Assembly (NCBI GenBank): GCA_963662715.1
Contig: OY759724.1
Coordinates: 2,010,662 to 2,074,661 of the forward strand
Source: Candidatus Omnitrophota bacterium
GTDB taxonomy: Bacteria; Omnitrophota; Gorgyraeia; Zapsychrales; JANLHA01
DNA length: 64,000 nt
Reading direction: 5' to 3'
Positions within the stretch are counted from its first letter, which is position 1; each line of letters starts with the position of its first letter. This document shows positions 29,085 through 58,765 of the stretch, one piece after another. The notes beneath the pieces were generated by a model that was not told the origin of the DNA, made no database searches, and was given only the letters and a program-made list of their open reading frames with translations. A program made the position numbers and the translations under genes.

Positions 29085-29090
29085 AGCGAT

Positions 29091-30536
29091 ATGAATGTAG
29101 CCTTTGTTTTCTCTTCTCAAAATGTTTTCTCTCCGGAGAAACCTTTACAATATCAGGAAGAAATGAATTTTGGTATTTCCTACATATCAGCATTTATAAA
29201 AAAACACGGGCATCAAACGCGGCTGTTTATAGTGACCAAAGACACAAAAATGAAGACTTTTCAGGAATTTGTAGACTCTTTTCAGCCTGAGGTTATCTGT
29301 TTTTCCAGCGTGACCAGCGAGTTCCCGTTTATAGTCCGCTGGATCAGAGATATCAAAGGATCCTACCCGCATATTTATTGTGTCGGAGGCGGCTGTCATA
29401 TAACCTTGAATCCTCATGACGGCCTGGAGACATCTCTGGACGCCCTTTGCATCGGAGAGGGGGAATGGCCGATCCTGGAACTTGTGGAGCAACTGGATCA
29501 GGGACGCATTCCGCAGGGAATAAGTAATTTATGGATTAAGCGGGACGGACAGGTTGAAAAGAACCGTATCCGTCCGTTTTTGGAAAACATTGATGATCTG
29601 CCGTTCCCGGACCGGGAGATGTGGCATCCCTGGACATTGGATCTGGACAGCCGGCCGGCGGTTCTTTTAGGCCGCGGATGTCCTTTTCAATGCACGTACT
29701 GTTCAAATCATGCCTTAAAGAAACTGGCATCAGGCACGTATGTCCGCTGCCGTTCCGCGGAGAATATTATTGCCGAACTCAAAGAGATCACGTCCCGGCA
29801 GCCTTCCGCCAGGGAGGTTTACTTTGAGGTGGAAACATTTAATGTGAATCTCCCCTGGGCTATCGGTTTGTGTGAAAGATTGGCAGAATTTAACCGGAAA
29901 AGGGACATCCCTCTGGAGTTTGGCGTGAACATCCGCGTCACGCCTAATACGGATTTTGCTTCGCTTTTTGCGGCCATGAAGAAGAGCCGGTTTTCTTTTA
30001 TCAATATCGGGGTCGAATCCGGCAGCGAACGGATCCGCCGGGATATTATGAAGCGGCGGTATTCCAACGACGATATTATGAAGACCGTTGCCCTGGCCCG
30101 GGAGCATGGATTAAAAGTGCATTTTTTGAACATGATCGGTCTCCCGACGGAAACAGAGGAGGATATCCGTCAGACGATTGCTGTTAACCGTGCCTGCCAG
30201 CCGGATATGTGGCCGTCCCATTCGATTTTTTTCCCGTACCCCGGGACAGAAATTCACCGTATGTGCCGGGAAATGAATTTATTGCCCCCCCAGATGGATG
30301 TCGAACGGGAACGCTCCCGGGCCGTGCTTAATCTGGACGGGTTGTCAAAAAGCAGAATTATGCATTATTTTGTCTGGTTTGACTATTATGTTTATAAAGG
30401 TCACCGCCCTTTATGGAAACTGCTGGCCCGGGTTTTTGTGGCCCGGCTGCATTGCTCGTACCGGTTGATGCGTATTTACCGGGGGCTGACCGAACGGGGC
30501 GTTCTTAAAAAATTGAAGGAGTTTCTCAAAAAATAA
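29091..30536 (+). CDS. B12-binding-domain radical SAM enzyme (copy 1)
   Basis: N-terminal cobalamin-binding Rossmann-like region, then 'LGRGCPFQCTYCSN', the CxxxCxxC radical-SAM cluster motif. Confidence 0.8.
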   Translation: MNVAFVFSSQNVFSPEKPLQYQEEMNFGISYISAFIKKHGHQTRLFIVTKDTKMKTFQEFVDSFQPEVICFSSVTSEFPFIVRWIRDIKGSYPHIYCVGGGCHITLNPHDGLETSLDALCIGEGEWPILELVEQLDQGRIPQGISNLWIKRDGQVEKNRIRPFLENIDDLPFPDREMWHPWTLDLDSRPAVLLGRGCPFQCTYCSNHALKKLASGTYVRCRSAENIIAELKEITSRQPSAREVYFEVETFNVNLPWAIGLCERLAEFNRKRDIPLEFGVNIRVTPNTDFASLFAAMKKSRFSFINIGVESGSERIRRDIMKRRYSNDDIMKTVALAREHGLKVHFLNMIGLPTETEEDIRQTIAVNRACQPDMWPSHSIFFPYPGTEIHRMCREMNLLPPQMDVERERSRAVLNLDGLSKSRIMHYFVWFDYYVYKGHRPLWKLLARVFVARLHCSYRLMRIYRGLTERGVLKKLKEFLKK

Positions 30537-30538
30537 AC

Positions 30539-31702
30539 ATGGCGAACGAAACCAAAAGAAAAGTTATCCCTTACGGACGGCAAAGCATTTCCCAGGAAGA
30601 TATCAAGGCTGTTGTAAATGTTTTGCGTTCGGACTGGATCACTCAAGGGCCCAGGATTCAGGAATTTGAAAAGGCGCTGTGCCGTTATACGGGAGCGAAA
30701 TACGCGGTTGCCGTGGCCAACGGAACCGCGGGCCTGCACCTGGCCTGTTTAGCGGCCGGAGTCGGCCCCGGAGATGAAGTCATCACATCCCCGATGACTT
30801 TTTTGGCTTCTGCCAATTGTGTTTTATATTGCGGAGGGACCCCGGTCTTTGCCGACATCCAGCCGGATACGGGGAATATCGACCCGGAGGAGATTGCTAA
30901 GAAAATCAGCGCAAGAACCAAAGCCGTTATTCCTGTACATTTTGCCGGCCATCCCTGTGATTTGAAAGAGATCCGTCGCATGGCCAGGAAGCACAAACTG
31001 GTTGTGATTGAAGATGCCTGCCATGCGTTAGGGGCTGAATACCAGGGGAAAAAGATCGGCGCCTGCCAGTATTCTGATATGACGGTCTTCAGCTTTCATC
31101 CGGTTAAGAGTATTACGACCGGGGAGGGAGGAGCCGTCTTAACGAATAATAAAAGGATGTATGAAAAACTTGTTCTATTGAGAAACCACGGGATGACGCG
31201 GGACAAGGCCAAAATTAAAAAGGGACAGGGGGACTGGTATTGCGAAATGCAGGCGTTGGGATTTAATTACCGTATCACCGATATCCAGTGCGCCTTGGGT
31301 ATAGGGCAGTTAAGCAGACTGGACCGGTTCCTGGCCAAAAGACGGCAGCTGGTTCAAGTCTATCAGAAGGCTTTGGCGGATACTTCGCACATTCAGCGTC
31401 CGGTTGAGCTCCCCGGGGGGCGTTCGGCCTGGCATATTTATCCCGTTTTTATTCACCCCTCAAGCCTGAAGCCTGTTGTTTTCAAGAAATTAAAGGCGGC
31501 CGGAATCAGACCGCAGGTTCATTATATGCCGGTTTACTGGCATCCTTATTATTATTCCCTGGGGTACAGAAAAGGGTTATGCCCCGGGGCAGAAGAATTT
31601 TATCGCGCGGAAATCACGGTCCCGTTGTATCCTTCGTTGAAATTACGTGAGGTTCATTATGTTGTCCGGACGTTAAAAGATATCTTGGAAGAGGTGAGGT
31701 AA
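30539..31702 (+). CDS. pseC: UDP-4-amino-4,6-dideoxy-N-acetyl-beta-L-altrosamine transaminase (DegT family)
   Basis: 'IPYGRQSISQEDIKAVVNVLRSDWITQGP' is the PseC N-terminal signature. PLP lysine in 'SFHPVKSITTGEGG'. Confidence 0.8.
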   Translation: MANETKRKVIPYGRQSISQEDIKAVVNVLRSDWITQGPRIQEFEKALCRYTGAKYAVAVANGTAGLHLACLAAGVGPGDEVITSPMTFLASANCVLYCGGTPVFADIQPDTGNIDPEEIAKKISARTKAVIPVHFAGHPCDLKEIRRMARKHKLVVIEDACHALGAEYQGKKIGACQYSDMTVFSFHPVKSITTGEGGAVLTNNKRMYEKLVLLRNHGMTRDKAKIKKGQGDWYCEMQALGFNYRITDIQCALGIGQLSRLDRFLAKRRQLVQVYQKALADTSHIQRPVELPGGRSAWHIYPVFIHPSSLKPVVFKKLKAAGIRPQVHYMPVYWHPYYYSLGYRKGLCPGAEEFYRAEITVPLYPSLKLREVHYVVRTLKDILEEVR

Positions 31703-32433
31703 TGAAAACAGTGGCTGTCATACAAGCCCGGATGAATTCTACCCGTCTGCCCGGGAAAGTCCTTATGGATATTGCCGGGCAGCCGATGCTGGCACATGTG
31801 GTCAGACGGTTGACACATAGCAGCCGGATTAATGAAATTGTCGTCGCTTTAACAACAGATACCGCTGATGATGTTGTGGAAATGTTTTGCCGGGACAGTA
31901 AAATCAAAATTTTTCGGGGGGAAAGTCATGACGTGTTGGACCGTTATTATCAAACAGCCCGATCTTTTCAGGCGGATTGTATCGTCCGGATCACCTCAGA
32001 CTGCCCTTTGATCGATCCTCAGGTCGTGGATCACGTTATCCGTGAATTCAAAGATACTTCCGCTGCTCTGGACGGGGCCACGAATTGTCTTCGCCGGACA
32101 TATCCTCGCGGACTCGACTGTGAAGTGTTCGGCTTTTCCGCCCTTGAGCGGTGCTGGAGACTGGCGGAGAAAGATTATTGCCGTGAGCATGTCACGATAT
32201 ATATGTATGAACATCCTGAGCTTTTTAAGATGAAAAATGTTGAATATAAGGAAGATTTGTCTTTTTACCGGTGGACCGTTGATGAAGAGCTTGATTTGAA
32301 ATTGGTGCGGGAGATTTATCTGAGACTGAGATCGGCAAAGGAGATGTTTTTTATGCAGGATATTCTGGAGGTGTTTGAAAGAGACCCGGCCCTTAAACAT
32401 ATCAACGAACATGTCCTTCAGAAACACGTTTAG
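31702..32433 (+). CDS. acylneuraminate cytidylyltransferase-family protein (PseF/SpsF-like CMP-sugar synthetase)
   Basis: 'AVIQARMNSTRLPGKVLMDIAGQPML' matches the cytidylyltransferase motif AR-x-x-S-x-R-x-x-x-K. Confidence 0.65.
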   Translation: MKTVAVIQARMNSTRLPGKVLMDIAGQPMLAHVVRRLTHSSRINEIVVALTTDTADDVVEMFCRDSKIKIFRGESHDVLDRYYQTARSFQADCIVRITSDCPLIDPQVVDHVIREFKDTSAALDGATNCLRRTYPRGLDCEVFGFSALERCWRLAEKDYCREHVTIYMYEHPELFKMKNVEYKEDLSFYRWTVDEELDLKLVREIYLRLRSAKEMFFMQDILEVFERDPALKHINEHVLQKHV

Positions 32434-32445
32434 AGAAATTTATTT

Positions 32446-33459
32446 ATGTCAGAACAGGTTTTGATTTTAACAGAAGGAGGAAAAGACGTCGGCCTGGGGC
32501 ATCTGTCCCGATGCTCCGCCTTGTACCAGGCTTTTGCGCAGAAGGGCGCTTCTCCGGTCCTGGTGGTTAACGGAGAAGAACATATCCTGGATTTTATCCC
32601 TGGTTTGCAATGCCATATTCAGCCCTGGCTGGACAAAGATGTCCTTTTGTCTTTATTGCAAGAAACGCCGGATATCGCGGTGGTCGATTCTTATTTAGCC
32701 GGGGAAGATCTTTATCAGATCATTGCGCGTAAGTGCAAGGTTGCCGTTTATATGGATGATAATAAACGTATGGATTATCCTCCGGGAATCGTGGTGAACA
32801 GCGCCGGAAACGCTGAGGCGTTGGGATATCCTCCCTGTCACGATAAGGTTTATTTGTTAACAGAAAAATATGCGTTGTTAAGAGCCCCGTTTTGGCAAGA
32901 CTCCCCCAGGAGAGCCGGACAGGCGCTTGAAACAATTTTGTTGACAATGGGTGGGAGTGACATGCGCAATCTGACTCCAAAGATTTTACAGGTTTTAACG
33001 CAGGAGTACCCGCAGGCGGAAAAGATTGTCATCGTGGGGCATGGGTTCAGCCGGCAGGAAACGATGTCATCATGGATCGATGATAGAACACAGATTGTAC
33101 AATCTCCAGATGCGGAAGCTCTGAGAGCCTTGATGCTTCAGGCGGATATGGCTGTTTCCGCTGGCGGGCAGACATTATACGAACTGACACGGTGCGGGGT
33201 TCCGGCTTGTGTCGTATGTGTCGCGGATAATCAGGCGTCGCATATCTCCTGGTTTCAAGAGAAAGGTCTGGTAAAGGATTGCGGACGGTATGATGCTTCT
33301 AACCTATCAGCGCGTGTGCGGCAGGCCTTAGGAGAATTGGCTGATGAGGAGCTTCGCAGCCGGATTTCGGCGGCAGGCAGAAAGATTGTCGACGGCCGGG
33401 GCGCGTTACGCCTCGTGGACGAAATATTAAAATATTTGCCTCTGCAACAGCATTATTGA
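32446..33459 (+). CDS. pseG: PseG-like UDP-2,4-diacetamido-2,4,6-trideoxy-L-altropyranose hydrolase (GT28-C-like)
   Basis: 'VLILTEGGKDVGLGHLSRCSAL' and a GT-B C-terminal pattern. Position in a pse cluster. Confidence 0.6.
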   Translation: MSEQVLILTEGGKDVGLGHLSRCSALYQAFAQKGASPVLVVNGEEHILDFIPGLQCHIQPWLDKDVLLSLLQETPDIAVVDSYLAGEDLYQIIARKCKVAVYMDDNKRMDYPPGIVVNSAGNAEALGYPPCHDKVYLLTEKYALLRAPFWQDSPRRAGQALETILLTMGGSDMRNLTPKILQVLTQEYPQAEKIVIVGHGFSRQETMSSWIDDRTQIVQSPDAEALRALMLQADMAVSAGGQTLYELTRCGVPACVVCVADNQASHISWFQEKGLVKDCGRYDASNLSARVRQALGELADEELRSRISAAGRKIVDGRGALRLVDEILKYLPLQQHY

Positions 33460-33488
33460 ATTTTACATTAAAAGGGGAAGAATGAGTT

Positions 33489-34130
33489 ATGGAAAAAGTC
33501 AAGATAGCTATATATGGCGCTTCCTTAGGGGGTGAGACCGTTAAAGAATGTCTTGCTCTGGAAGATACCTGTGATATTGCTTGTTTCCTGGATGATGACC
33601 CCCGGAAGTCGGGAATGGAATTTTGCGGTTTACCTATCCGGTCCTCGGATGATCTGGAGAAATTAAGCGCAGAGGGCGTGTCCCGGGTTGCCCTGGCCGT
33701 TGCCAATGCCTCGAAGAGACTGGAACTCCGGGGCCGGCTCATGGCATGCCGCCTGGAGCCGATGAATGTGATACATCCGCGCACTTATATAGCCCCGTCT
33801 GTAAAGATCGGGAAAGGAAACTATATTAAAGCCGGCGCGGTTATTGAGACAAATAGCACTGTTGGTGATTGCTGTATTATCGATAACGGTGTCATTGTCG
33901 CTCATGACAATGTCATTGAAGACGCCTGTCATCTTGCACCGGGTGTCGTTTTGGGAAGCAGTATTGTGGTCGGATCAGGGAGCATTATCGGAATAGGGGC
34001 CAGTATATCAACAAAGATCCGTATCGGAAAAAATGTGATTGTCAGCGTGGGAACCAGTGTCACCAGAGACGTTCCGGATAACAGTATTGTAGAAGGCGTT
34101 CCGGGAAAAATCATTGGAAGACGAAAATAA
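33489..34130 (+). CDS. NeuD/PglD-family sugar O-/N-acetyltransferase (hexapeptide LbH)
   Basis: N-terminal Rossmann-like 'IAIYGASLGGETV', then hexapeptide repeats 'IGKGNYIKAGAVIETNSTVGDCCIIDNGVIVAHDNVI'. Confidence 0.7.
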   Translation: MEKVKIAIYGASLGGETVKECLALEDTCDIACFLDDDPRKSGMEFCGLPIRSSDDLEKLSAEGVSRVALAVANASKRLELRGRLMACRLEPMNVIHPRTYIAPSVKIGKGNYIKAGAVIETNSTVGDCCIIDNGVIVAHDNVIEDACHLAPGVVLGSSIVVGSGSIIGIGASISTKIRIGKNVIVSVGTSVTRDVPDNSIVEGVPGKIIGRRK

Positions 34131-34186
34131 AAAATGCTTCCTGTCCCCGGGCCGCGGAAGCGGGTGAGGGCTTACAGTTAGGGTGT

Positions 34187-35104
34187 ATGATGAAAACAGA
34201 AGTGTTGTATGAAAAGATGTTGTTAATAAGGCTCTTCGAGGAGCAGGTGGGTCTTTTGTTTACCCGGGGAGATTTATTCGGGACGACACACGCCTGTATC
34301 GGGCAGGAAGCCGTTGCTGTGGGTGTTACGCAGGGGCTCCATCAAGATGATATCATCACGAGCAATCACCGCGGCCACGGCCATTATATTGCTTTCACCG
34401 GAGATGTCGAAGGCCTGCTGGCGGAACTGATGGGCAAAAAGACCGGAGTTTGCGCCGGTCGCAGCGGCAGCCAGCATTTGTGTTATAAAAATTTCTTTTC
34501 CAACGGAATAACCGGAGGCATGATCCCGGTGGCAACGGGCATGGCTTTGGCGGAAAAGAAAAAGAAGAGCGGAAAAATCGTTGTTTGTTTCTTGGGAGAC
34601 GGTGCCTTGGGAGAAGGCCCGCTTTATGAGTCTTTGAACATGGCCTCTTTATGGGGGCTGCCGATTATTTTTGTTGTTGAGAATAACAGTTATGCCATGA
34701 GCACGCATATTTCCGAGGCCGTGGCCGGAAAGATTTTAGAGCGCGGGAAAGCCTTCTCGATCAAAACAGAAGAGTTTTATACTCAGGATGCCGGGAAAAT
34801 TTTCTCCGGGTTTGAAAAAATTATCAGCCATGTCCGGACACAGGTTCAGCCGTATTTTTGTCTTTTTCATACATACCGGTTTTGCGGGCACAGCAAGAGC
34901 GATGATTGCTGTTACCGCGATAAGAATGAAGAACTGGAATGGCGTAAGAAAGATCCGCTGCTTATTTTAGAACAGCGTTTAGAGCCGCAAACCGTAAAAA
35001 GGATTCAGGAAAAATGCCGCCGTCAAATTGAGGAAGCTTTAAGCCAGGCGGCGGAAGCTCCCTTTCCTGACCCGGCTTGCTTGTCTCAGGGATTATGGGG
35101 TTGA
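34187..35104 (+). CDS. TPP-dependent 2-oxoacid dehydrogenase E1 component, alpha subunit
   Basis: 'ITSNHRGHGHYIA' and the TPP-binding 'GDGALGEG...NN'. Confidence 0.8.
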   Translation: MMKTEVLYEKMLLIRLFEEQVGLLFTRGDLFGTTHACIGQEAVAVGVTQGLHQDDIITSNHRGHGHYIAFTGDVEGLLAELMGKKTGVCAGRSGSQHLCYKNFFSNGITGGMIPVATGMALAEKKKKSGKIVVCFLGDGALGEGPLYESLNMASLWGLPIIFVVENNSYAMSTHISEAVAGKILERGKAFSIKTEEFYTQDAGKIFSGFEKIISHVRTQVQPYFCLFHTYRFCGHSKSDDCCYRDKNEELEWRKKDPLLILEQRLEPQTVKRIQEKCRRQIEEALSQAAEAPFPDPACLSQGLWG

Positions 35105-35113
35105 GGAAGATGT

Positions 35114-36127
35114 ATGAAAACATTTGCGCAATCGATTAATACCGCGTTGGAGGAAAAATTAGCTGAAGATCCCCGGGTGCTTTTGCTGGGCGAAGATCTC
35201 CGGGATCCTTACGGCGGTGCCTTTAAAATCACAAAAGGACTGTCTTCCCGGTATCCGGACCGGGTTCTCAACACGCCGATGAGCGAGTTTTCATTAGCCG
35301 GAGTGGCTGCGGGGCTGGCCATACGGGGTTTGCGGCCGGTCTTGGAGATCATGTTCGGTGATTTTATGACATTTTGCGCGGATCAGCTGATCAACCATGC
35401 CGTGAAGTTTCGCTGGATGTACAACGGACAAGTGGATGTCCCGCTTGTGATCCGGACTCCCATGGGAGGGGGACGCGGTTACGGTCCGACCCACAGCCAG
35501 TCTCTGGAGAAGATTTTTATGGGCATTCCGGGGCTGAAGATCATTGCTGCGAGTCATTTTCATGATGCCGGGACATTGTTAAAAGACGCTATTGATGACG
35601 ACAATCCGGTTTTATTTATAGAACATAAACTTTTATATCCCCGTAAGATCGGCCAGCCGGTGGACGGTTACATTTCGGACTTTGCCGTTAAATTTTCTGA
35701 CGGCAGGTATAAAACATTGAGATTATCTAACACGGACTTTGACGATCCTCAGCTTACGGTGCTTGTTTATGGCGGAATGTTGCCTTGGGTGACAGAGGCT
35801 GTTAATGAACTGCTCGTTGAAGAGGAGGTCGGAGCGGAGATTGTTGTCCCGAGTTATATTAACCAATCTTTCATCCCGGAGATGATGGAATCCGTTAAGA
35901 CAACAGGGAGGCTGGTGATTGTGGAAGAAGGGACTCTGTCGTTCGGCTGGGGGGCAGAAATGGCCGCCAGGATTGTGACACATGAAAGCATAGGGTCCTT
36001 GAAGGCGCCTGTCAGGCGGGTGGCCGCGAAAGATCTGCCTTTGGCGAATTCACGTGTTTTAGAAGAAGCCACATTGCCGCAGGTCAGGGATATCAAAAAG
36101 GCTGTTCAGGAGGTCTTAGCGTCATGA
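35114..36127 (+). CDS. 2-oxoacid dehydrogenase E1 component, beta subunit (transketolase-like C-terminal)
   Basis: 'VLLLGEDL...GGAFKITKGL...RVLNTPMSE' and the overall E1-beta pattern. Confidence 0.8.
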   Translation: MKTFAQSINTALEEKLAEDPRVLLLGEDLRDPYGGAFKITKGLSSRYPDRVLNTPMSEFSLAGVAAGLAIRGLRPVLEIMFGDFMTFCADQLINHAVKFRWMYNGQVDVPLVIRTPMGGGRGYGPTHSQSLEKIFMGIPGLKIIAASHFHDAGTLLKDAIDDDNPVLFIEHKLLYPRKIGQPVDGYISDFAVKFSDGRYKTLRLSNTDFDDPQLTVLVYGGMLPWVTEAVNELLVEEEVGAEIVVPSYINQSFIPEMMESVKTTGRLVIVEEGTLSFGWGAEMAARIVTHESIGSLKAPVRRVAAKDLPLANSRVLEEATLPQVRDIKKAVQEVLAS

Positions 36128-36561
36128 TACACGATATCCTTGTGCCGCAGTTGGGCGTTAATGATGAGTTCGTCACCATTGTTGAGTGGCGTGTTAACGA
36201 CGGGGACAAAGTTGAGGTTGGGACGCCGTTATGCATCATTGAGACAACGAAGGCGGTCGTAGACCTGTTAGCTGAAAATCCCGGGGTTATCGTCAGGATA
36301 CGCTGTGAAAAGGAGCGGGTAGCCATAAAAGATCTTTTGGGATACATCGGCGATTCTTGGGAGGAGATCCAGCGCCTTATCCCGGAGAAACAGGCGACCG
36401 GAAAAAAGTCTGTGGGCGGCGAAGCCGATATTAAAGCCACGCAGAAAGCCCGGGCCCTGGCTGAATCCCTGGGAGTGGATATCGGTCTGATTCTTAAGAA
36501 AGGGATCATCCGCGAAAAGGATGTGCAGGAATTTTATGCTTCCCGGCAAAAGGAATTTTAA
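36124..36561 (+). CDS. stand-alone lipoyl/biotinyl carrier domain protein with a peripheral-subunit-binding domain (E2 lacking the acyltransferase catalytic domain)
   Basis: 'GTPLCIIETTKAVVDL' carries the lipoyl-Lys in a TTKA context. 'TQKARALAESLGVDIGLI' is a PSBD. There is no C-terminal CAT domain. Confidence 0.7.
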   Translation: MIHDILVPQLGVNDEFVTIVEWRVNDGDKVEVGTPLCIIETTKAVVDLLAENPGVIVRIRCEKERVAIKDLLGYIGDSWEEIQRLIPEKQATGKKSVGGEADIKATQKARALAESLGVDIGLILKKGIIREKDVQEFYASRQKEF

Positions 36562-36562
36562 G

Positions 36563-50097: not shown

Positions 50098-50754
50098 ATG
50101 ATAGAAAATTTAAAGAAAAAAATCGGATGTTTTTATTCCCGTTCATTGCACAGACAATACCTGGATGCTGTTATCTCCCGAAAAGCTCCGCTGGTGTCCC
50201 GGACCGTGCTGGATGTCGGCTCTAAAAACAGACGTTATGATCATCTTTTTCCCCTGGCCGACCCCCTTGTGGCGATTGACCGCCGTCCGGGGCAAGACAA
50301 TGTTATGGCCGCCGATGCCCTGCAACTGCCTTTTAAGAATCATAGTTTTGATGTTGTGCTATCATTTGAAGTCCTGGAATATATCCCTTCCACGGATGTG
50401 GCTTTAAGCGAAATCGCCCGGGTCCTTAAACCGCGGGGGGTTTTTATTTTTTCTGTCCCGTTCCTGGACCCGGTTCACGGGGACATCGATTATGTGCGGC
50501 ACACGTACAGGTCCTGGGAGCGTTTGTTGGCCCCTTATTTTAGCGTTCAGGAGATGATTCAGCTCGGAGGCCGTTTTGCGTGTATCTGGGATTTTTATTT
50601 CGAAAAAGTGCGGAACCATTATGGGAAATTTGCTAAACTGATTGTCCTGCCTTTTTTGTATGTGACAAAAAAGATTGTGTTATGGCTGGATCAGAGAGAG
50701 AAAAGCTGGAGGTATCCCATGGGGTATTTTTATGTTTGCCGGTCCCGTCATTGA
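50098..50754 (+). CDS. class I SAM-dependent methyltransferase (Methyltransf_11-like)
   Basis: 'VLDVGSKNR...LPFKNHSFDVVLSFEVLEYIP...LKPRGVFIFS'. Confidence 0.6.
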   Translation: MIENLKKKIGCFYSRSLHRQYLDAVISRKAPLVSRTVLDVGSKNRRYDHLFPLADPLVAIDRRPGQDNVMAADALQLPFKNHSFDVVLSFEVLEYIPSTDVALSEIARVLKPRGVFIFSVPFLDPVHGDIDYVRHTYRSWERLLAPYFSVQEMIQLGGRFACIWDFYFEKVRNHYGKFAKLIVLPFLYVTKKIVLWLDQREKSWRYPMGYFYVCRSRH

Positions 50755-50792
50755 GTTGGTAATCGGAATGAATTTAAGGAAGAAATATAAGA

Positions 50793-51872
50793 ATGCAACA
50801 AAGCAAATTAGCACAATCGGTTCAAATTATTAAGCAGCGAGGCGTCAGGGATTTTTTAAGAATTGCCAGCAATTATTATCTTTATAATTCTCATACCCGG
50901 AAAAATCTTCCTGCCCGCTGTCTGACAAAACCGATTCATTTGCAGGTCGAAACAACAAGGTTATGTAATCTTCGCTGCAAAATGTGTGAATACTCATATC
51001 GTAACGGCGAGAGAAGTTTCATGTCTCTTGAGACGTTCAAGAAAGTTTTCGGCCAGTTCCCCCAGCTTCGTTCGATGGACTTAACCGGCATTGGGGAACC
51101 GTTCTGCAACCCTGATTTCATGAAAATCGTACGCTACGGGAAAAAACATGGCGTAAAGATCGAATTTTCGACCAACGGACTTCTTTTAACAGAAGCTCAT
51201 ATGGATGAACTGATAGAACTGGATGTGGATAAAATATCTTTTTCCGTCGATGCCTCAACCCGGGAAACGCATGAAAAGATCCGGCAGGGGTCCTCTTTTG
51301 AAAAATTAACAAGTCATATTAAATTGTTAAGCCGGAAGAAGCGGGGTTTGAGACGGCAGAAACCGGTTGTTTATTTGAGTTACATCGTTTCGCTTGAGAA
51401 TATCCTGGAGGCCGAGGCGTTTCTTGATCTGGCCGGGGAGGTCGGGGCCCAAACCGTTGTTTTCCGTGATCTGCTGGTTTTTGAGTCCGGGGATTATTCG
51501 GACAAGGATAAGGTTGAGAGTCTGTCCTTGCAATGGCGGCAAGATTTGGGGAGGAAAATATTGGATAAGGCACGGCATCTGGATATTGAGGCAGCTTTGC
51601 CTGATTCCCTGTCCATCTCTGGTCCGAAGAAAAAAATATTCTGTTTCCGCCCCTGGCGTTCAGCTTTTGTGGATGTTTTCGGCCATATGTATCCCTGTTG
51701 TCGTTTGACGCAAAAGAATGTTAATATCATGGATTATTCTTTCGGCCACCTGCTTTCCCAGGATGTCAATGAGATATGGAATAATCCCCGATATGGCGCG
51801 TTGCGGAAGACCCTGGTTCATCCCACCGCGATCCCCCGTTTGTGTGAAGGGTGCGGTTGCCTGAGAAAATAA
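50793..51872 (+). CDS. radical SAM enzyme with C-terminal SPASM/twitch Cys cluster
   Basis: 'TTRLCNLRCKMCEY' gives the CxxxCxxC motif. The C-terminus reads 'CFRPW...YPCCRLTQKN...RLCEGCGC'. Confidence 0.75.
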   Translation: MQQSKLAQSVQIIKQRGVRDFLRIASNYYLYNSHTRKNLPARCLTKPIHLQVETTRLCNLRCKMCEYSYRNGERSFMSLETFKKVFGQFPQLRSMDLTGIGEPFCNPDFMKIVRYGKKHGVKIEFSTNGLLLTEAHMDELIELDVDKISFSVDASTRETHEKIRQGSSFEKLTSHIKLLSRKKRGLRRQKPVVYLSYIVSLENILEAEAFLDLAGEVGAQTVVFRDLLVFESGDYSDKDKVESLSLQWRQDLGRKILDKARHLDIEAALPDSLSISGPKKKIFCFRPWRSAFVDVFGHMYPCCRLTQKNVNIMDYSFGHLLSQDVNEIWNNPRYGALRKTLVHPTAIPRLCEGCGCLRK

Positions 51873-51905
51873 CTCCGGCCGGAAGAACTCTTCATAAGGA
51901 ATTTT

Positions 51906-53333
51906 ATGAAATTATTTTTTATAGAGCCGCCGCTTATCAATGCTTCCAACGAGGCGTGTCTTGCCCGCGGAGAACTGGCCGCCCCGGATGTTGCGCCTTT
52001 CCCCAATTTAGGCATCGCCTATTTGGTGGCGGTTGCCGAACAACTGGGGCATCAATGTCGCGTTGTTGACATGAACGTCTCCCCGGGCGGCTTTGAGCAA
52101 AAGGTCCTTGGCTTCTCTCCTGATATTTTGTTTTTAACCGCCCTGACGACGCAATACCGGGCTGTTAAAATTATCATCAATACGTTTAAAGGGCGAATTC
52201 CCATTGTCCTGGGCGGGCCGCATGCCAGCATTTTTGAGGAAAGACTTTTAGACGACGGGGTGGATATTGTTGTCGTGGGAGAAGGGGAAGAGACCTTGCG
52301 TTCCCTGCTGGCCCGTTTCCCTGACCAGCTGGGCAGTGTGCCGGGAGTAATCTTTAAGAAGGAAGGACAGGTTGTCAAAACCGGCCGGCCGGAGCGCGTG
52401 TTAAATCTTGACGATCTGCCGTTCCCGGCCTGGCATCATTATCATCTTGATTTATACGACAATATGTACGGCGGCCGGAAATGTTTGCCGGTGATATCGA
52501 GCCGTGGCTGTCCCTTCCATTGCGTTTATTGTTTTAAAGGGGTTTTTGGCGATAAGATCCGGATGAGAAGCGCGGCTAACGTTGTTGAGGAAATAATGTT
52601 TTTTAAAAATAAATATGATATCGGAGCCGTGCTTTTTTGCGATGATTTGTTCACTGTTAAACGGAAACGCGTTGAGGAATTCTGTCATCTTCTCCTGGAG
52701 AAAAAAATGGATATTATCTGGCGGTGTCTGGGGAGAGCGGACCAGGTTGATTACGATCTTTTATCCCTTATGAAAAAGGCCGGATGTCGCTCGATTGCTT
52801 TAGGTATTGAATCCGGCAATCAGGAAGTTCTGGATAAAGTGGGGAAGCGGATCAGCCTGAAGCGCGTTGCGGAAGCGATTCAGGCGTGCCGCCGTGTGGG
52901 GATTGTTTCCAAAGGTTATTACATTATCGGCCTGCCCTGGGATACCCATAAAACGGTGCAGGATACGATCAATTTTGCTAAAAAGAACCGGACGACGCAA
53001 TCGCAGTTTACGCTTCCTCTGGCTTATCCGGGAACGGAATTGTGGGACATTGGAAAGCAAAAAGGGCTTCCGGTTGAAGACTATGTCGAAACTTTTTCCT
53101 GGGATAAGAATCTGCCCCCGTATTCATTCTCGGATGATTTGAGCGAGAAAGATATTGAATATTATATCCGGACGGCCCGCAGGATTGATGCGTGGGCGTA
53201 TGTCGTTAAAAGATTGCGGAAAATGAAGTGGCAAGAATATCCTGGTTTTATAAAATGGATTTGTATTAAAAGTTATGCCCTGCTCAGAGCCAAATTGGCT
53301 ATGATGTTCAGATTAGCTAAACATCATGCCTGA
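51906..53333 (+). CDS. B12-binding-domain radical SAM enzyme (copy 2)
   Basis: N-terminal B12-binding region 'IVLGGPHAS...VVVGEGE', then 'SSRGCPFHCVYC'. Confidence 0.8.
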   Translation: MKLFFIEPPLINASNEACLARGELAAPDVAPFPNLGIAYLVAVAEQLGHQCRVVDMNVSPGGFEQKVLGFSPDILFLTALTTQYRAVKIIINTFKGRIPIVLGGPHASIFEERLLDDGVDIVVVGEGEETLRSLLARFPDQLGSVPGVIFKKEGQVVKTGRPERVLNLDDLPFPAWHHYHLDLYDNMYGGRKCLPVISSRGCPFHCVYCFKGVFGDKIRMRSAANVVEEIMFFKNKYDIGAVLFCDDLFTVKRKRVEEFCHLLLEKKMDIIWRCLGRADQVDYDLLSLMKKAGCRSIALGIESGNQEVLDKVGKRISLKRVAEAIQACRRVGIVSKGYYIIGLPWDTHKTVQDTINFAKKNRTTQSQFTLPLAYPGTELWDIGKQKGLPVEDYVETFSWDKNLPPYSFSDDLSEKDIEYYIRTARRIDAWAYVVKRLRKMKWQEYPGFIKWICIKSYALLRAKLAMMFRLAKHHA

Positions 53334-53353
53334 TAATCTTTGGCGGGGAGGGT

Positions 53354-55075
53354 GTGGGAAGTCAACATAAAGGACCTTATAAGGAGTTTCTGGTGGAAAT
53401 AAAGGTTGGTCATATTTGTCGGCTGAAAGATCCCGAGCGCATTTGCGCGGAGACGCCCGTGGACGCGGTTTTGATTGTCGATATCCTGGCTTTTAATAGT
53501 TATGTTTTTATCCCCCTGGTGCCGGCCGGCGCCCTGCCAGGGGACAAAGATATCATTCTTGAAAGCCGGGAAAGTCTTAAGGGCTCCCTGCCGCAGGTGA
53601 AGGCCGCCTGTGCCTGCATGTCCTCGCTTAAAGGGGAGGATATCGCGGAGGTGGTGGATGAGCTTAAGAAGCCGGCGTTGGAAAAAATTCTAAAGATATG
53701 TATTAAACGTTCAACGGAGAATTATTATGAATCCGTCCACGCTCCTGCTCAGTCTTCGGCTTTTGTCCCGGGGCAGTCCCGGATTCCCTATGCGGGCAGG
53801 GTTTATACCGCAGAAGAGATCGGGAACCTGGTGGATTCTTCCCTGGAATTTTATCTGACCGCCAGGCGTTATGACAAAGCCTTTTGTGAAAATTTCAATA
53901 ATTTTTTATCAGGAGCCGGGCTTCCTGGGGCGGTCCGGAGCTTGACGGTTAATTCCGGGTCATCGGCCAATCTGTTGGCCTTGGGCGCGCTCACCTCTTA
54001 TAAGCTGGATGATTTGAGCCTGAAGGAGGGGGATGAAGTCATTACGGCTGCCGCCGGATTCCCGACAACGATTGCGCCGATCATCCAGCATAAACTGACG
54101 CCGGTTTTTGTGGATGTTGATTTGGGGAGTTATAATATAAAGACCTCACGGCTTGAGGAGGCGGTCACGGAAAAAACCAAGGCGATTTGCGTGGCGCATA
54201 CTTTGGGTATCCCGTTTGATTTAGAACGTGTGCTGGAGCTGGCCGAAAAACATCGTCTTTGGATCATTGAAGATAATTGTGACGCGCTCGGGGCCGAGTT
54301 TCAACTGAAGAAGGAATATCATCTTATCAAAGGGCGGTGCGTTTCCGGGAAAAGATACACCGGGACCTTTGGACACATAGGAACATCGAGTTTTTATCCG
54401 GCGCATCATATTACAATGGGAGAAGGCGGGGCTGTTTACACTCAGGATCTGGAGCTTTATCGGATTTTATTGTCCCTGAGGGACTGGGGCCGGGACTGCT
54501 GGTGCGAGCCCGGACAGGATAATACGTGTCAAAAACGTTTCGGCTGGCGGTTGGGAGATTTGCCGGTCGGCTATGATCATAAATACATATATTCCCATTT
54601 GGGATATAATCTGAAGATTACGGATTTGCAGGCGGCGGTTGGTTTGGCTCAATTGAAAAAGCTGCCGTCTTTCATCGAAGCCCGGAGACGACACTGGCAA
54701 CTGCTCTGCGACGGACTGAAAGATTTGGCGGATTATTTTATCCTGCCGAGCTGTCCCGTTCAGGCTACGCCGTCCCCCTTTGGTTTTGCGCTAACGGTGC
54801 AGCCCGGGGCCGGTTTCAAGCGAGACGATATCACTCAGTATCTGGAGAGCCAGGGCATTCAGACCCGGACGGTTTTTGCCGGGAATATTTTAAAACAGCC
54901 GGCTTTTGTTTACACCCGGCCCGGGCACCGTGTTGTCGGAGACTTGGCCAACACGGACCGTGTCATGAACGATACGTTCTGGCTGGGCGTTTATCCCGGG
55001 TTAAATGACGAGAAACTGGAATATGTTATGGACCATGTCCGGAGGTTTATCAAGTGCAAGATCAAAGTCTGTTAA
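53354..55075 (+). CDS. rfbH: CDP-6-deoxy-D-xylo-4-hexulose-3-dehydrase (E1; RfbH/DdhC/AscC), PMP-dependent, with an N-terminal extension of about 115 aa
   Basis: 'VNSGSSANLLALGAL' is RfbH-type. 'SFYPAHHITMGEGGAV' has His in place of the PLP Lys, the E1 hallmark. 'DCWCEPGQDNTC' matches the E1 [2Fe-2S] C-X1-C-X7-C motif. Confidence 0.8.
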   Translation: MGSQHKGPYKEFLVEIKVGHICRLKDPERICAETPVDAVLIVDILAFNSYVFIPLVPAGALPGDKDIILESRESLKGSLPQVKAACACMSSLKGEDIAEVVDELKKPALEKILKICIKRSTENYYESVHAPAQSSAFVPGQSRIPYAGRVYTAEEIGNLVDSSLEFYLTARRYDKAFCENFNNFLSGAGLPGAVRSLTVNSGSSANLLALGALTSYKLDDLSLKEGDEVITAAAGFPTTIAPIIQHKLTPVFVDVDLGSYNIKTSRLEEAVTEKTKAICVAHTLGIPFDLERVLELAEKHRLWIIEDNCDALGAEFQLKKEYHLIKGRCVSGKRYTGTFGHIGTSSFYPAHHITMGEGGAVYTQDLELYRILLSLRDWGRDCWCEPGQDNTCQKRFGWRLGDLPVGYDHKYIYSHLGYNLKITDLQAAVGLAQLKKLPSFIEARRRHWQLLCDGLKDLADYFILPSCPVQATPSPFGFALTVQPGAGFKRDDITQYLESQGIQTRTVFAGNILKQPAFVYTRPGHRVVGDLANTDRVMNDTFWLGVYPGLNDEKLEYVMDHVRRFIKCKIKVC

Positions 55076-55920
55076 CGGTTCTCATCACAAATTATAACAC
55101 CCTGGACTTTGTTAAGGTCTCACTTCTGGCCCTTCAGAAGCTTACGATCAACCCGTATAAAGTTTTTATTAATGACAACGGTTCCCGTCCGCGGGAAACG
55201 GCGGAGCTGAAAAATATTGCAAAGGACAATCCTCATGTTTGGGTGAATTTTAGAAAGAGTTCGCGCAAACAGACATCTTACGCCCATGCCGAGGCCCTGG
55301 ATTTGCTGATCAGCCGTGTTGAAACAAAATATGCTGTTGTCCTGGACAGTGACTGCACGTTCCTTATGAAAGGGTGGGACGAGTATATGATCCGTCAAGT
55401 CGATGATGCGGTGAAGATTGTCGGTTCTCCGCTGGCCAAAGGGCGAAGCGGTCTGAAACCCGATGATTTTCCTTTTCAGTTTGCGGTTTTATTTGATACG
55501 GCTGTTTATAAAAGCCTTAACATCAGCTGTATGCCGGTGGATATCGCCGGAGGAAAAGACACCTGCTGGGAATGGAAACATAAGTTTACAAACGGAGGAT
55601 ATAAAGGGAAAGTCTTTTCCGCGCTTTGCACCCGGGATTATAAGGAAGGGCCGTTCAGGAGCATCACCGGGGTTGCTGAATATTACACCGAGGACGGACG
55701 TCTCATCGGGTCCCATTACGGGAGAGGCTCCACACAGGGCATTACGAAATTCCGGGCCGGAATATACCGTATCCCGTATCTTTCGAAACTGTTGAACATT
55801 TATGTCGGGTTAAAAGAGAAAAAGGACTGGTTAGGAATTTGCCGGCGGATTATTGAAGAACAAGCGGACCTTTGTCCCGCCAGCACCCCGGCCGCCCGGC
55901 CCGTCATGGCAGGAAGATAA
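55054..55920 (+). CDS. putative glycosyltransferase (GT2-like N-terminus)
   Basis: 'LTVLITNYNTLDFVKVSLLAL...FINDNGS'. Confidence 0.45.
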   Translation: MQDQSLLTVLITNYNTLDFVKVSLLALQKLTINPYKVFINDNGSRPRETAELKNIAKDNPHVWVNFRKSSRKQTSYAHAEALDLLISRVETKYAVVLDSDCTFLMKGWDEYMIRQVDDAVKIVGSPLAKGRSGLKPDDFPFQFAVLFDTAVYKSLNISCMPVDIAGGKDTCWEWKHKFTNGGYKGKVFSALCTRDYKEGPFRSITGVAEYYTEDGRLIGSHYGRGSTQGITKFRAGIYRIPYLSKLLNIYVGLKEKKDWLGICRRIIEEQADLCPASTPAARPVMAGR

Positions 55921-55926
55921 AAATTT

Positions 55927-57228
55927 TTGTTTAAAGGTGAGATCATGAAAAAAAGAATCGCCAACCTTGTCGCCGGTAACAGCTGTTTGTTTGGGGCGGC
56001 ATCGGCTTTGAAATTTGTTAATTTCAGAAAATTTAATAAACTGCATTGTTTCCGCTCAGCACGGAAAAATGAAGTGAAAGCGACCTGTTTGCCCTGCCGG
56101 GGGGTTTTGAATTTAACAGATATGTGCAATTACCGCTGCGCCTTTTGTGAAATTCATTATTTTCATGATAAGTTTCCGGAGCTGCACAAAAATTTTATCG
56201 ATATAGAAGTGGTCAAAAAGTATGAAGATTGGATTAAAAACCTGGACAGCCTGGCTTTCTACGGTTCTGTGGGCGAACCCATGATGAACAAGCAATTCGC
56301 ACACATCGCCCGGTACTTAAAGACCAGATATCCGTCCCTGCAATTAAGCGTGACGACAAACGGATATTTTCTGAATCAGGAGACGGCGGATATCCTGATC
56401 GATTGCGGTTTTGACCATGTCCTGGTTTCTCTGCACGCGGCGAAAGGGGAGACGTATAAAAGACTTTTAGGCGGAAATTTGGACAGGATCCTGAAAAATA
56501 TCCTCTATTATACAAAGCATAAGAAGCCGCAACAGGAAGTGGCCGTGAATTTTATGCTGAACCGGATTAACGCGCAGGATATTTATTCAGTTGTCGACCT
56601 GATCCTGGACCTGCAGTGTGATTACCTTGTTGTTAATAATTATTATGACGTCCGCAATAAATTGGAGCGGGAAATTTCTTATTATTTCAGCCCGGAGGAG
56701 GGGAATCATATCCTGGACAACCTCTACTCCTATGCCCGTAAACAGGGGCTCCGTCTGATGCCCCTTGCCCCGCCGTATTATTATGAGCTGAAGGACTATA
56801 GCGATCTTGATTATGATGACTTGACCGTTTCGCAAGGTGTCTGCCCGGAGCCCTGGCGTTCGGTTCAGTTTAAAGGAACCTTGGAACACGCGGATTCGCA
56901 TTATATTTCTGTCTGCAACCGCATTGAATTGATGCGTTTGAACTATAAAGAGTTTTTTGCGGACGGGACAAAAACTTTTTCCGATATCTGGAACCATCCT
57001 ATCCTGCAGTTTTTGAGAGAGACAGTGAATTCAGAAAACATGAACCTGATATGCCGGTTATGTAAATCCCAGGAATACAAAGTCATCCGGTGTCTGGATA
57101 ATGACCGTTATCGCATCCTGCGGGACCATGCGGTGAATGAATTTTACCGGAATTTCAAAAAGCATTGCGCCGGGGCCTATCAGCCTGTCAAGGGGCTGTA
57201 TCTGCTGGATGAAATTCCTTTTAGTTAA
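55927..57228 (+). CDS. radical SAM enzyme with C-terminal Cys-rich (SPASM-like) region
   Basis: 'CNYRCAFCE' radical-SAM motif. The C-terminus reads 'CPEPW...CNRIE...CRLCKSQE'. Confidence 0.7.
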   Translation: MFKGEIMKKRIANLVAGNSCLFGAASALKFVNFRKFNKLHCFRSARKNEVKATCLPCRGVLNLTDMCNYRCAFCEIHYFHDKFPELHKNFIDIEVVKKYEDWIKNLDSLAFYGSVGEPMMNKQFAHIARYLKTRYPSLQLSVTTNGYFLNQETADILIDCGFDHVLVSLHAAKGETYKRLLGGNLDRILKNILYYTKHKKPQQEVAVNFMLNRINAQDIYSVVDLILDLQCDYLVVNNYYDVRNKLEREISYYFSPEEGNHILDNLYSYARKQGLRLMPLAPPYYYELKDYSDLDYDDLTVSQGVCPEPWRSVQFKGTLEHADSHYISVCNRIELMRLNYKEFFADGTKTFSDIWNHPILQFLRETVNSENMNLICRLCKSQEYKVIRCLDNDRYRILRDHAVNEFYRNFKKHCAGAYQPVKGLYLLDEIPFS

Positions 57229-57247
57229 ATTTTTTGGGTAAGGATTT

Positions 57248-58765
57248 TTGATTGTTGAGAAAGGACAGATGTTAGAACGCACAAAAGATCAAGTGAAAAT
57301 TTTGTTGATGTACCCCCCGACCGGATCGATCGGGACCTACAATACGCCGACAGGATTGCTTTATATCGCAACGGTCCTTCAGCATCATGGATATTTCGTC
57401 CGGCTTGTCGACTGTTCGGTCGAGCCGCGCTATCAGGATATTTTAGACCGGGAAATACCGGACACGGATTTGCTCGGCATTTACGCGATGAGCGTGCATA
57501 TCCGTTATCTTCTCCCGGAGCTCAGGCGACTGAAGGCCTTGAATCCACGGCTCAAAATTATCTGGGGCGGCCCGCATGCGATCCTTTTCCCCGAACAGAC
57601 GGCCAGCAGCCCTTTGGCGGATATCGTGACCCGGGGAGAGGGGGAAGACTTGATGCTGGAAATTGTCCGGGAATATGAAGCCGGCACCCTGGATTACCGC
57701 AAGATCAAAGGAATTTATTTTAAGGATAACGGGCAGATCACTTCAACCCCTCCGCGGCCTTTTGTCGACGTCAATCAACTTCCGTTTCTGGACTGGTCTT
57801 TTTTAAAGAAAGACGTCCTTGATACGGTGCGTAAAGGAATTATCCGGGTGCAGGCCAGCCGGGGTTGCCCTTACCGATGCGCCTTCTGTATTAATGTGCT
57901 TACGAATAACAGAAAGATGCGGTATCGGGATCCGGAAAAGGTCGTTGATGAAATCGAATACTTAACCCGGGAATATCATATCCACCGGGTCGGCTTCCGG
58001 GATGAGGTCTTTATGTCCAACCGTAAACAGGTGAAGGATATTGCCCAGGGGATTCTTGACCGGGATATCCATATTACCTGGCTGGCTAATCCCCGGGTCG
58101 AGTATCTCAGGGAATCCTATATCGACGATGCTTATTTAAAACTGCTGGCCGATTCCGGCTGCAACAAGCTGCAGTGCGGAGGAGAATCCGGGTCCCAGCG
58201 GATTCTGGATATGCTGCATAAAGGGATTAAAGTGGATGATATCCTTAATTTTGTCCGGAGAACCAAAAAATATAATATTTATCCGCTGGTCGCTTTTATG
58301 ACCGGGATTCCCACCGAGACAAAAGCGGAGCAGATGCAGACGCTGAGGCTTATCAGGGATATTTTACGTATACAGCCGGTAGCTTTTATCAACGGCCCGG
58401 CGAATTACCGCCCTTATCCCGGAGGGGAACTGTATGATATGTGCGTGAAGGAGTATCATTTGAAGATGCCGGATTCCCTGGAAGGCTGGGAGAAAGCGGA
58501 AATTCTGGGGGGGAGTGCGCCTCCGTGGGTCGAAGACGTCTGTTTCAACCAGTTTTTGTGGACCAGCACGAAGGCGGCGACCTATTCTTTCTCCTATTTG
58601 TGGAAACAGATCCGCCGGAATCCTTTGAAAGGGTTGGCGATTTCCTTTTTAAGCATAATTTCGAGGATGCGTTTACGCTGGCTTTTTTACCGTTTCCCTT
58701 TTGAATTTTATCTGTTGAATTTTTATTATCAAAGAATCCTTAAAAAAGTCCCGGAATACAGTTAA
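57248..58765 (+). CDS. B12-binding-domain radical SAM enzyme (copy 3)
   Basis: 'IIWGGPHAILFPEQ...TRGEGED', then 'ASRGCPYRCAFC'. Confidence 0.8.
   Translation: MIVEKGQMLERTKDQVKILLMYPPTGSIGTYNTPTGLLYIATVLQHHGYFVRLVDCSVEPRYQDILDREIPDTDLLGIYAMSVHIRYLLPELRRLKALNPRLKIIWGGPHAILFPEQTASSPLADIVTRGEGEDLMLEIVREYEAGTLDYRKIKGIYFKDNGQITSTPPRPFVDVNQLPFLDWSFLKKDVLDTVRKGIIRVQASRGCPYRCAFCINVLTNNRKMRYRDPEKVVDEIEYLTREYHIHRVGFRDEVFMSNRKQVKDIAQGILDRDIHITWLANPRVEYLRESYIDDAYLKLLADSGCNKLQCGGESGSQRILDMLHKGIKVDDILNFVRRTKKYNIYPLVAFMTGIPTETKAEQMQTLRLIRDILRIQPVAFINGPANYRPYPGGELYDMCVKEYHLKMPDSLEGWEKAEILGGSAPPWVEDVCFNQFLWTSTKAATYSFSYLWKQIRRNPLKGLAISFLSIISRMRLRWLFYRFPFEFYLLNFYYQRILKKVPEYS

Follow-up and report, generated by a model that had tools for sequence, protein, structure and literature searches.

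What do five radical S-adenosylmethionine (SAM) enzymes contribute to a surface-glycan gene cluster of an uncultivated, anaerobic Candidatus Omnitrophota bacterium? We addressed this question in a 64-kb stretch of contig OY759724.1 (GenBank assembly GCA_963662715.1, positions 2,010,662 to 2,074,661 of the forward strand; hereafter "the window"), for which a sequence-only reading had proposed cobalamin (B12)-binding and SPASM-tailed radical-SAM enzymes interleaved with sugar genes. To that end, the open reading frames (ORFs) of the window were annotated with Pfam and NCBIfam, and all cluster ORFs of ≥100 amino acids (aa) were scanned. Sugar genes indeed surround all five radical-SAM ORFs, and a glycan-tailoring role of the five enzymes is well supported. 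On balance, we lean towards a reading in which this ~40-kb surface-glycan cluster makes cytidine monophosphate (CMP)-pseudaminic acid and a cytidine diphosphate (CDP)-3,6-dideoxyhexose, tailored by the five radical-SAM enzymes (C-methylation for the B12-type, BtrN-like chemistry for the Twitch-type) and about nine methyltransferases. From the domain content and fold of these proteins, the tight packing of their genes, and the recurrence of a glycan context, we infer an oxygen-independent tailoring of surface-glycan building blocks, in which the five enzymes probably modify carbons of the surface sugars in unusual ways.

Five radical-SAM genes in a co-directional glycan cluster

The glycan cluster, delimited by annotation of every ORF, runs in a single direction (Table 1): from position ~22985 to the window end, every sizeable ORF lies on the + strand, the widest intergenic gap within the cluster is 151 bp, and the cluster may continue beyond the window end. 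Its five radical-SAM genes fall inside 30 kb. A six-frame scan of the window returned six CxxxCxxC motifs, one in each of these five ORFs and the sixth in RimO (1178-2470), a housekeeping protein scoring above its NCBIfam cut-off. The gene order "tailed radical-SAM, then B12 radical-SAM" is found twice (50793 with 51906, and 55927 with 57248). According to Pfam, the cluster further holds about nine methyltransferases of the class-I or FkbM type, four or five glycosyltransferases, one polysaccharide deacetylase, two cytidylyltransferases, short-chain dehydrogenase/reductase (SDR) genes, and a pseG-like gene.

Table 1 Features of the glycan cluster, in window coordinates.
Feature	Coordinates	Strand	Evidence
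B12 enzyme 1, between pseB and pseC	29091..30536	+	Pfam B12-binding 57.7 bits, Radical_SAM 86.7 bits
B12 enzyme 2, downstream of Twitch enzyme 1, upstream of rfbH	51906..53333	+	Pfam B12-binding 74.4 bits, Radical_SAM 85 bits
B12 enzyme 3, directly 3' of Twitch enzyme 2	57248..58765	+	Pfam B12-binding 56.6 bits, Radical_SAM 78.2 bits
Twitch enzyme 1, BtrN-like short SPASM tail	50793..51872	+	Pfam Radical_SAM and SPASM (51 bits)
Twitch enzyme 2, four-Cys tail	55927..57228	+	Pfam Radical_SAM alone
pseB, B12 gene 1, pseC, cytidylyltransferase, pseG-like, NeuD-type acetyltransferase, E1 alpha/beta, lipoyl, pseI	28101..37618	+	
rfbF, rfbG, rmlC-like epimerase, SDR reductase	42517..45870	+	NCBIfam; reductase, Pfam Epimerase alone
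RfbH (E1, CDP-6-deoxy-4-keto-hexose 3-dehydrase)	53354..55075	+	NCBIfam equivalog 647 bits (cut-off 423)
Family-2 glycosyltransferase after rfbH	55054..55920	+	Pfam Glycos_transf_2
Fused ABC exporter, MsbA/HepA/PglK-like	47271..49190	+	Pfam ABC_membrane and ABC_tran
Whole glycan cluster	22985..63370	+	Pfam and NCBIfam on every ORF

Three B12-type proteins from different subfamilies

Three ORFs are class-B radical-SAM proteins with a cobalamin-binding domain predicted from their sequences, all three scoring above the Pfam B12-binding cut-off of 32.1 bits. Their radical-SAM motifs read GRGCPFQCTYC, SRGCPFHCVYC, and SRGCPYRCAFC (CPFQCTYC at 29679 in enzyme 1), exactly as quoted in the sequence-only reading, which had correctly recognized a cobalamin-binding region followed by CxxxCxxC in these three ORFs. 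That reading had counted four such genes, but neither the six-frame motif scan nor Pfam on the cluster ORFs of ≥100 aa revealed a fourth, and outside these three ORFs, a B12-binding domain occurs in the window solely in MetH. The latter, a cobalamin-dependent methionine synthase (7224-10952), and a methylenetetrahydrofolate reductase (21866-22735) are both encoded just upstream of the cluster, which shows that cobalamin use and methyl-group recycling are part of the metabolism of this organism.

The three proteins had also been described as paralogous, which is accurate insofar as they share a superfamily but does not extend to local duplication. Their pairwise identities are 26–28%, and far closer relatives exist elsewhere for enzymes 1 and 2 (46–78% identity; for enzyme 3, 67% on contig L087), so that they represent different old subfamilies. 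Pairwise identities of 23–28% among the radical-SAM proteins exclude a recent local duplication of these genes.

Structure prediction, proposed in the sequence-only reading as a check on the cobalamin-binding fold, covers enzyme 1 among the B12-type proteins. The profile-based AlphaFold model (predicted local distance difference test, pLDDT, 92.6; predicted template modeling score 0.90) combines a Rossmann domain with a radical-SAM barrel, in agreement with the claim. Its best solved matches are MgmA (9CCB), TsrM, AprD4, CysS, OxsB, and TokK, with Foldseek E-values of 1e-17 to 3e-22 against TokK, TsrM, OxsB, and MgmA. At the sequence level, the N-terminal domains of all three B12 enzymes align to MgmA, CysS, and TokK. 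Since AprD4 has this fold yet binds no cobalamin (PMC12931638), cobalamin binding does not follow from the fold alone.

Two tailed enzymes of the Twitch type

Both tailed enzymes are radical-SAM proteins with Cys-containing tails, as the sequence-only reading had noted, but its "SPASM" label applies in part only. Twitch enzyme 1 passes the Pfam SPASM cut-off of 21.5 bits, while Twitch enzyme 2 has no Pfam SPASM match even at an E-value of 0.1 on the tail, and the seven-Cys SPASM motif is found in neither family. The family alignment of Twitch enzyme 1 contains five invariant tail Cys (C284, C302, C303, C351, and C354) and that of Twitch enzyme 2 exactly four, spaced C-x23-C-x45-C-x2-C. As a reference we used the Twitch pattern of BtrN, i.e., C-x(about 17)-C-x(about 45)-C-x2-C, with four Cys and a single auxiliary cluster. 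BtrN is the best solved match for the family profile of Twitch enzyme 1 (E-value of 1e-19), and its four auxiliary-cluster Cys align, in a second aligned stretch, to the invariant C284, C302/303, C351, and C354. The family of Twitch enzyme 2 shows a BtrN-type Cys spacing, yet no direct match to BtrN was found.

Judging from these Cys patterns, the pair is better described as Twitch-type, with one predicted auxiliary cluster, than as full SPASM. The proposal of a sugar dehydrogenase or epimerase activity fits with the carbohydrate dehydrogenase BtrN being the nearest sequence relative of the tailed enzymes, and by this resemblance the two would most likely be BtrN-like oxidases or epimerases. 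They share about 23% identity with each other. The family of Twitch enzyme 1 has few members, 17 proteins reaching ≥42% identity among 5.8 billion clusters, and that of Twitch enzyme 2 comprises about 40 representative clusters at E-values ≤1e-30 among 1.84 billion. Translation of Twitch enzyme 2 probably starts at codon 7 (55945), where the database copy begins. Distant relatives of this enzyme (P0307, P0323, P0325, P0347, P0389, and others) are domains within proteins of 1100–2000 aa. For the giant proteins of Omnitrophota, a 2026 preprint reports that radical-SAM domains group with domains of sugar metabolism.

Pseudaminic acid and dideoxyhexose genes

The first B12 gene lies within a pseudaminic acid (pse) operon, 6 bp from pseB and 2 bp from pseC. 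PseB (28101; 497 bits), PseC (30539; 524 bits), PseI (36521; 453 bits), and the NeuD-type acetyltransferase (33489; 177 bits) score above their NCBIfam cut-offs. The pseG-like gene falls below its own (PseG model, 133 bits for a cut-off of 153.6), and the PseF role is assigned solely from a Pfam CTP_transf_3 cytidylyltransferase match. Between the NeuD-type acetyltransferase and pseI, the operon also holds genes for thiamine pyrophosphate (TPP)-dependent E1 alpha and E1 beta subunits and a stand-alone lipoyl-domain protein of 145 aa (34187-36561). These are pyruvate/acetoin dehydrogenase-like, score below NCBIfam cut-offs, come without an E2 catalytic domain, and may be an unusual source of an N-acyl group or of a two-carbon branch.

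The other two B12 genes, and both Twitch genes, stand with the dideoxyhexose genes. The glucose-1-phosphate cytidylyltransferase RfbF (42517; 440 bits), the CDP-glucose 4,6-dehydratase RfbG (43205; 495 bits), and the RmlC-type protein (44408; 182 bits) are all above NCBIfam cut-offs. The assigned start of rfbG (43205-43330) is probably too far upstream, as the ORF overlaps rfbF by 113 bp and the family match begins at residue 43. Directly after the dideoxyhexose reductase lies a second, short NeuB-like ORF (45848-46576; 242 aa), without a SAF domain and below NCBIfam cut-offs.

Further downstream, rfbH starts 20 bp past B12 gene 2, and its equivalog score bears out the earlier statement that the copy at 51906 is immediately upstream of this E1 dehydrase. 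The RfbH model match spans residues 110-568 and includes CWCEPGQDNTC (CWCx7C) at residue 382, a CxCx7C arrangement that serves as the iron-sulfur motif in AscC, an E1 dehydrase. The N-terminal extension of ~95–110 aa (53354-53700) has no Pfam match, orthologues at loci L086 and L090 measure 439–440 aa, and AAGGAG-N6-GTG offers a good alternative start at 53393. For the E3 reductase (AscD/RfbI-type), no FNR-type or Fer2 domain was found among the cluster ORFs, nor in L086 or L090.

The sequence-only reading envisaged sequential action on one deoxysugar. As gene 1 sits in the pse operon and genes 2 and 3 with the dideoxyhexose genes, different building blocks are the likelier targets.

Relatives in other genomes

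B12 enzyme 1 belongs to a large family, with 2346 relatives at E-values ≤1e-20, the top 120 of which are about 50% identical, of equal length, and distributed across bacteria and archaea. In species-representative genomes, these relatives occupy 349 loci spanning Omnitrophota, Planctomycetota, Elusimicrobia, candidate phyla radiation bacteria, Actinomycetota, and DPANN and Asgard archaea. The closest ones (76–78% identical) are labeled Candidatus Omnitrophota, except for one Planctomycetales. The order pseB-gene-pseC is kept at L005 and L006, whose enzyme 1 relatives are 76–77% identical, while in remoter relatives the pse linkage is gone but the glycan linkage persists. We analyzed the neighbors of this family across 80 loci by clustering 1140 neighboring proteins. 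The commonest immediate neighbors are glycosyltransferases, followed by B12-radical-SAM genes and methyltransferases; glycan genes lie ≤10 kb away in 35 of the 49 non-actinobacterial loci, and at least two B12-radical-SAM genes are present in 20 of 46 related loci of ≥17 kb.

The orthologue group of B12 enzyme 2 is small, with identities of 46–65% followed by a fall to about 40%, and a metagenome scan for B12 enzyme 3 returned a single match, 30% identical. Locus L086 is a condensed version of the right half of the window, comprising 12 genes over about 14 kb in the order ABC exporter, rfbF, rfbG, rmlC-like, SDR, rfbH, family-2 glycosyltransferase (GT2), Twitch, B12-2, methyltransferase, deacetylase, and family-1 glycosyltransferase (GT1). 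At L090, the Twitch 1 orthologue is directly upstream of the series from rfbF to rfbH and GT2, with a B12-2 orthologue ~33 kb away on the same contig, and at L087 the orthologues of Twitch 1 (50% identity), B12-2 (59%), and B12-3 (67%) are adjacent. The co-occurrence of Twitch 1 orthologues with rfbH and with B12-2 was assessed from six contexts. The GT2 of the window likewise has orthologues (55–61% identity) directly following the rfbH orthologue in both L086 and L090, and the two nearest relatives of Twitch enzyme 2 (L092 and L094) are found among GT1, methyltransferase, NeuB, and DegT genes. The 10.5-kb contig L087 is itself dense in such enzymes: five radical-SAM genes, one Twitch and four B12, are split solely by a TagF-like gene and one unknown gene (1424-10466).

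A broader reading can be drawn from these distributions, although we put it forward tentatively and hold it to be less probable than the local one. A conserved, horizontally spread module could combine the BtrN-like Twitch enzyme and one or two cobalamin radical-SAM enzymes with a CDP-3,6-dideoxyhexose pathway that lacks E3 and has a dedicated glycosyltransferase. It would make a carbon-branched or radical-modified 3,6-dideoxyhexose for the envelope of uncultivated anaerobes, with the enzyme 1 family acting as a general radical C-methylase of surface-glycan building blocks.

Proposed chemistry and alternative explanations

For the B12 enzymes, a [4Fe-4S] cluster would cleave SAM to yield a 5'-deoxyadenosyl radical, which would take a hydrogen from an unactivated carbon of the sugar or of a substituent, and methylcobalamin would then donate a methyl group to that carbon. 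The target of B12 enzyme 1 would be an intermediate of the pseudaminic acid pathway, and B12 enzymes 2 and 3 would serve the dideoxyhexose branch. The Twitch enzymes, if BtrN-like, would remove a hydrogen from a carbinol carbon, with an electron leaving via the auxiliary cluster, to give a keto-sugar; alternatively, a hydrogen would be returned to give an epimer. We infer the substrate, cobalamin use, and methylation of the B12 enzymes, and oxidation by the Twitch enzymes. The B12 enzymes are most likely C-methyltransferases, a type represented in every characterized group of the B12-radical-SAM superfamily, with the sugar methylases GenK, GenD1, and MoeK5 among its members (PMC12931638).

Several observations weigh against this proposal. 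None of the five radical-SAM proteins reaches a named NCBIfam family (HpnJ, BchE, PhpK, ApyD, HpnR, BzaD, ladderane, MgmA, and others were scored for B12-radical-SAM enzymes), the best scores being 127–178 bits for cut-offs of 480–750. Moreover, the sugar diol dehydratase AprD4 (6FD2), which works without cobalamin, ranks in the top three of the solved structures, by sequence for B12 enzymes 1–3 and by fold for enzyme 1, and a 2026 review considers non-methylating B12-radical-SAM enzymes not separable from methylases by sequence (PMC12931638). The enzymes may therefore tailor sugars while some or all of the B12-type members perform other reactions, i.e., AprD4-like 1,2-diol dehydration, HpnJ- or OxsB-like ring contraction, or BchE-like cyclization. 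Among the NCBIfam models, enzymes 1 and 2 indeed score best, though below the cut-off, with HpnJ, and enzyme 3 with BchE; a missing E3 reductase, the usual RfbH partner in 3-deoxygenation, would also be consistent with this. We nevertheless consider such an outcome rather unlikely, if a serious contender: the HpnJ and BchE scores are far under their cut-offs, AprD4 aligns in sequence to the radical-SAM core alone whereas the N-terminal domains of the window proteins align to genuine cobalamin binders and score above the Pfam B12-binding cut-off, and methylation is the commonest known activity of the superfamily (PMC12931638).

Genomic context raises a second set of concerns. No partner gene is common to more than 17 of the 80 enzyme 1 loci, and the 31 Actinomycetota loci adjoin thiolase, KAS-III-like/DUF35, SDR, and electron transfer flavoprotein genes rather than glycan genes. 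This Actinomycetota context is acyl, lipid, or mevalonate-like; in the same clade, the enzyme 1 family gene precedes genes for a conserved 109-aa protein and a KAS-III-like/ChsH2 (DUF35) fusion, e.g., at L025, L027, L038, L044, L047, L051, L059, L061, L063, L066, and L075. At one further locus, L001 (3252-9458, a metagenome-assembled genome of Planctomycetota), the enzyme 1 orthologue comes after a Fom1-like fusion of cytidylyltransferase and phosphoenolpyruvate (PEP) mutase, a TPP decarboxylase resembling phosphonopyruvate decarboxylase, an iron-type alcohol dehydrogenase, and a TagF-like transferase, a layout that parallels the Fom1, Fom2, FomC, and Fom3 steps of fosfomycin synthesis, with the orthologue in the Fom3 position. 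A general phosphonate (Fom3-like) role for enzyme 1 was rejected, as a PEP-mutase context occurs in 1 of the 80 loci.

Such contexts could mean that B12 enzyme 1, at least, acts not on a sugar ring but on an acyl, alkyl, or small nucleotide-activated group ending on the glycan, for instance an N-acyl substituent provided via the neighboring TPP E1 and lipoyl genes, or a Fom3-type CMP-linked alcohol. The E1 alpha and beta, lipoyl, and NeuD acyltransferase genes of the window's pse operon would be in line with this idea, which we regard as improbable. The 31 Actinomycetota sequences form a single clade, so that their acyl context represents one evolutionary event, even though the link of the family to sugars is evidently not universal; and in the window and its close relatives, the enzyme 1 gene sits exactly between pseB and pseC.

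A last question is whether the radical-SAM enzymes act on a polypeptide, be it a ribosomally synthesized and post-translationally modified peptide (RiPP) or the glycosylated target protein, their genes being merely co-located with sugar genes. Pairs of SPASM/Twitch and B12 radical-SAM enzymes occur typically in RiPP clusters, the weak NCBIfam matches include ApyD and further RiPP models, and both peptide-modifying and sugar-modifying enzymes are found among the Foldseek matches of Twitch enzyme 1, with SuiB and SkfB among the best. As a decider between sugar and peptide substrates for this enzyme, the fold search was thus not discriminating. However, its model (pLDDT 90.4) places just two short helices (residues 2-38) before the core, too small for a peptide-recognition domain, and the neighbors of relatives of B12 gene 2, Twitch 1, and Twitch 2 are sugar genes in every context examined. 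The gaps beside the radical-SAM genes (≤38 bp) leave no room for a RiPP precursor gene, whose possible oversight had been raised in the sequence-only reading, and three small ORFs elsewhere in the cluster are unconvincing. With relatives of all five enzymes in glycan clusters of other phyla, the glycan role proposed in that reading is supported, and we deem a peptide or protein substrate very improbable.

Other features of the cluster

The fused ABC exporter scores ~400 bits with the NCBIfam HepA and MsbA models, below their cut-offs, and has orthologues in L086 and L090 (49–57% identity). Between the pse operon and rfbF (37615-42493), three poorly annotated conserved ORFs and a cytidylyltransferase-like gene (38498-39247) recur together in L005, L006, and L090. 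The three ORFs are candidate nonulosonate or phospho-alcohol transferases: a 321-aa ORF has a weak MptE/Maf-like match (E-value of 6e-4), a 450-aa ORF a weak TagF-like match (E-value of 7e-4), and in a 657-aa ORF the sole recognized domain is a C-terminal methyltransferase.

Significance

The five enzymes belong to known superfamilies but to uncharacterized subfamilies. The recurrent module of Twitch, B12, and E3-less dideoxyhexose genes is an uncharacterized variant, and so is the B12 gene inside a pse operon. Full-text searches of an incomplete literature collection found no report that places cobalamin radical-SAM enzymes in glycan clusters, be it for pseudaminic acid, O-antigen, or capsule, or in Omnitrophota. 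If the broader, less probable reading is correct, cobalamin-dependent radical C-methylation, so far linked to antibiotics, would be seen for the first time in the primary synthesis of cell-surface glycans. If the favored reading holds, many uncultivated anaerobes among the Omnitrophota, Planctomycetota, candidate phyla radiation bacteria, and DPANN and Asgard archaea would tailor their surface sugars by an oxygen-independent radical chemistry so far studied almost solely in antibiotic pathways. It would also predict sugars absent so far from glycan databases and give a role to one large unexplored B12-radical-SAM group. In practice, the value is that of an enzyme discovery lead, towards C–H methylation or oxidation of nucleotide sugars, rather than of a new biological principle or kind of system, and the 12-gene version at L086 offers a compact module for expression and product discovery.

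Comparison with known systems

Among characterized enzymes, the B12-type proteins resemble GenK and GenD1 (gentamicin) and MoeK5 (moenomycin) in having an N-terminal B12-binding Rossmann domain followed by a CxxxCxxC barrel, and sugar-nucleotide genes as neighbors, a likeness of architecture and context. Among solved structures, MgmA/QCMT (9CCB) is the top match by fold and sequence, with TokK, CysS, and TsrM as relatives, although the window proteins are just 14–20% identical to these solved class-B members. In contrast to the class-B methylases of antibiotic pathways, the window genes, known from sequence, are part of a primary cell-envelope glycan cluster for pseudaminic acid and a dideoxyhexose. 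AprD4, the sugar-acting 1,2-diol dehydratase of apramycin synthesis, is similar in length and two-domain fold, but it binds no cobalamin (PMC12931638) and aligns with the window proteins over their radical-SAM core alone, while their N-terminal domains exceed the Pfam B12-binding cut-off.

The butirosin 2-deoxy-scyllo-inosamine dehydrogenase BtrN (PDB 4M7T) is the closest parallel for the Twitch enzymes: the family of Twitch enzyme 1 aligns with it over both the core and the Cys tail, keeping the four auxiliary Cys, and Twitch enzyme 2 shows the same four-Cys spacing pattern. The match is nonetheless remote. BtrN has ~250 aa compared to 359 and 433 aa for the two window proteins, the Twitch genes of the window are paired with B12-radical-SAM genes, unlike BtrN, and in the fold search BtrN does not stand out from peptide-modifying SPASM enzymes.

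Finally, the dideoxyhexose genes recall the ascarylose-type pathway (Ep/RfbF, Eod/RfbG, E1/RfbH, E3, epimerase, reductase), with RfbF, RfbG, and RfbH above their equivalog cut-offs, the CxCx7C motif in RfbH, and both an rmlC-like epimerase and an SDR reductase present. They depart from it in the absence of an E3 reductase gene in the cluster, L086, and L090, in the extra N-terminal stretch of rfbH, and in the Twitch and B12-radical-SAM genes that travel along with the pathway.

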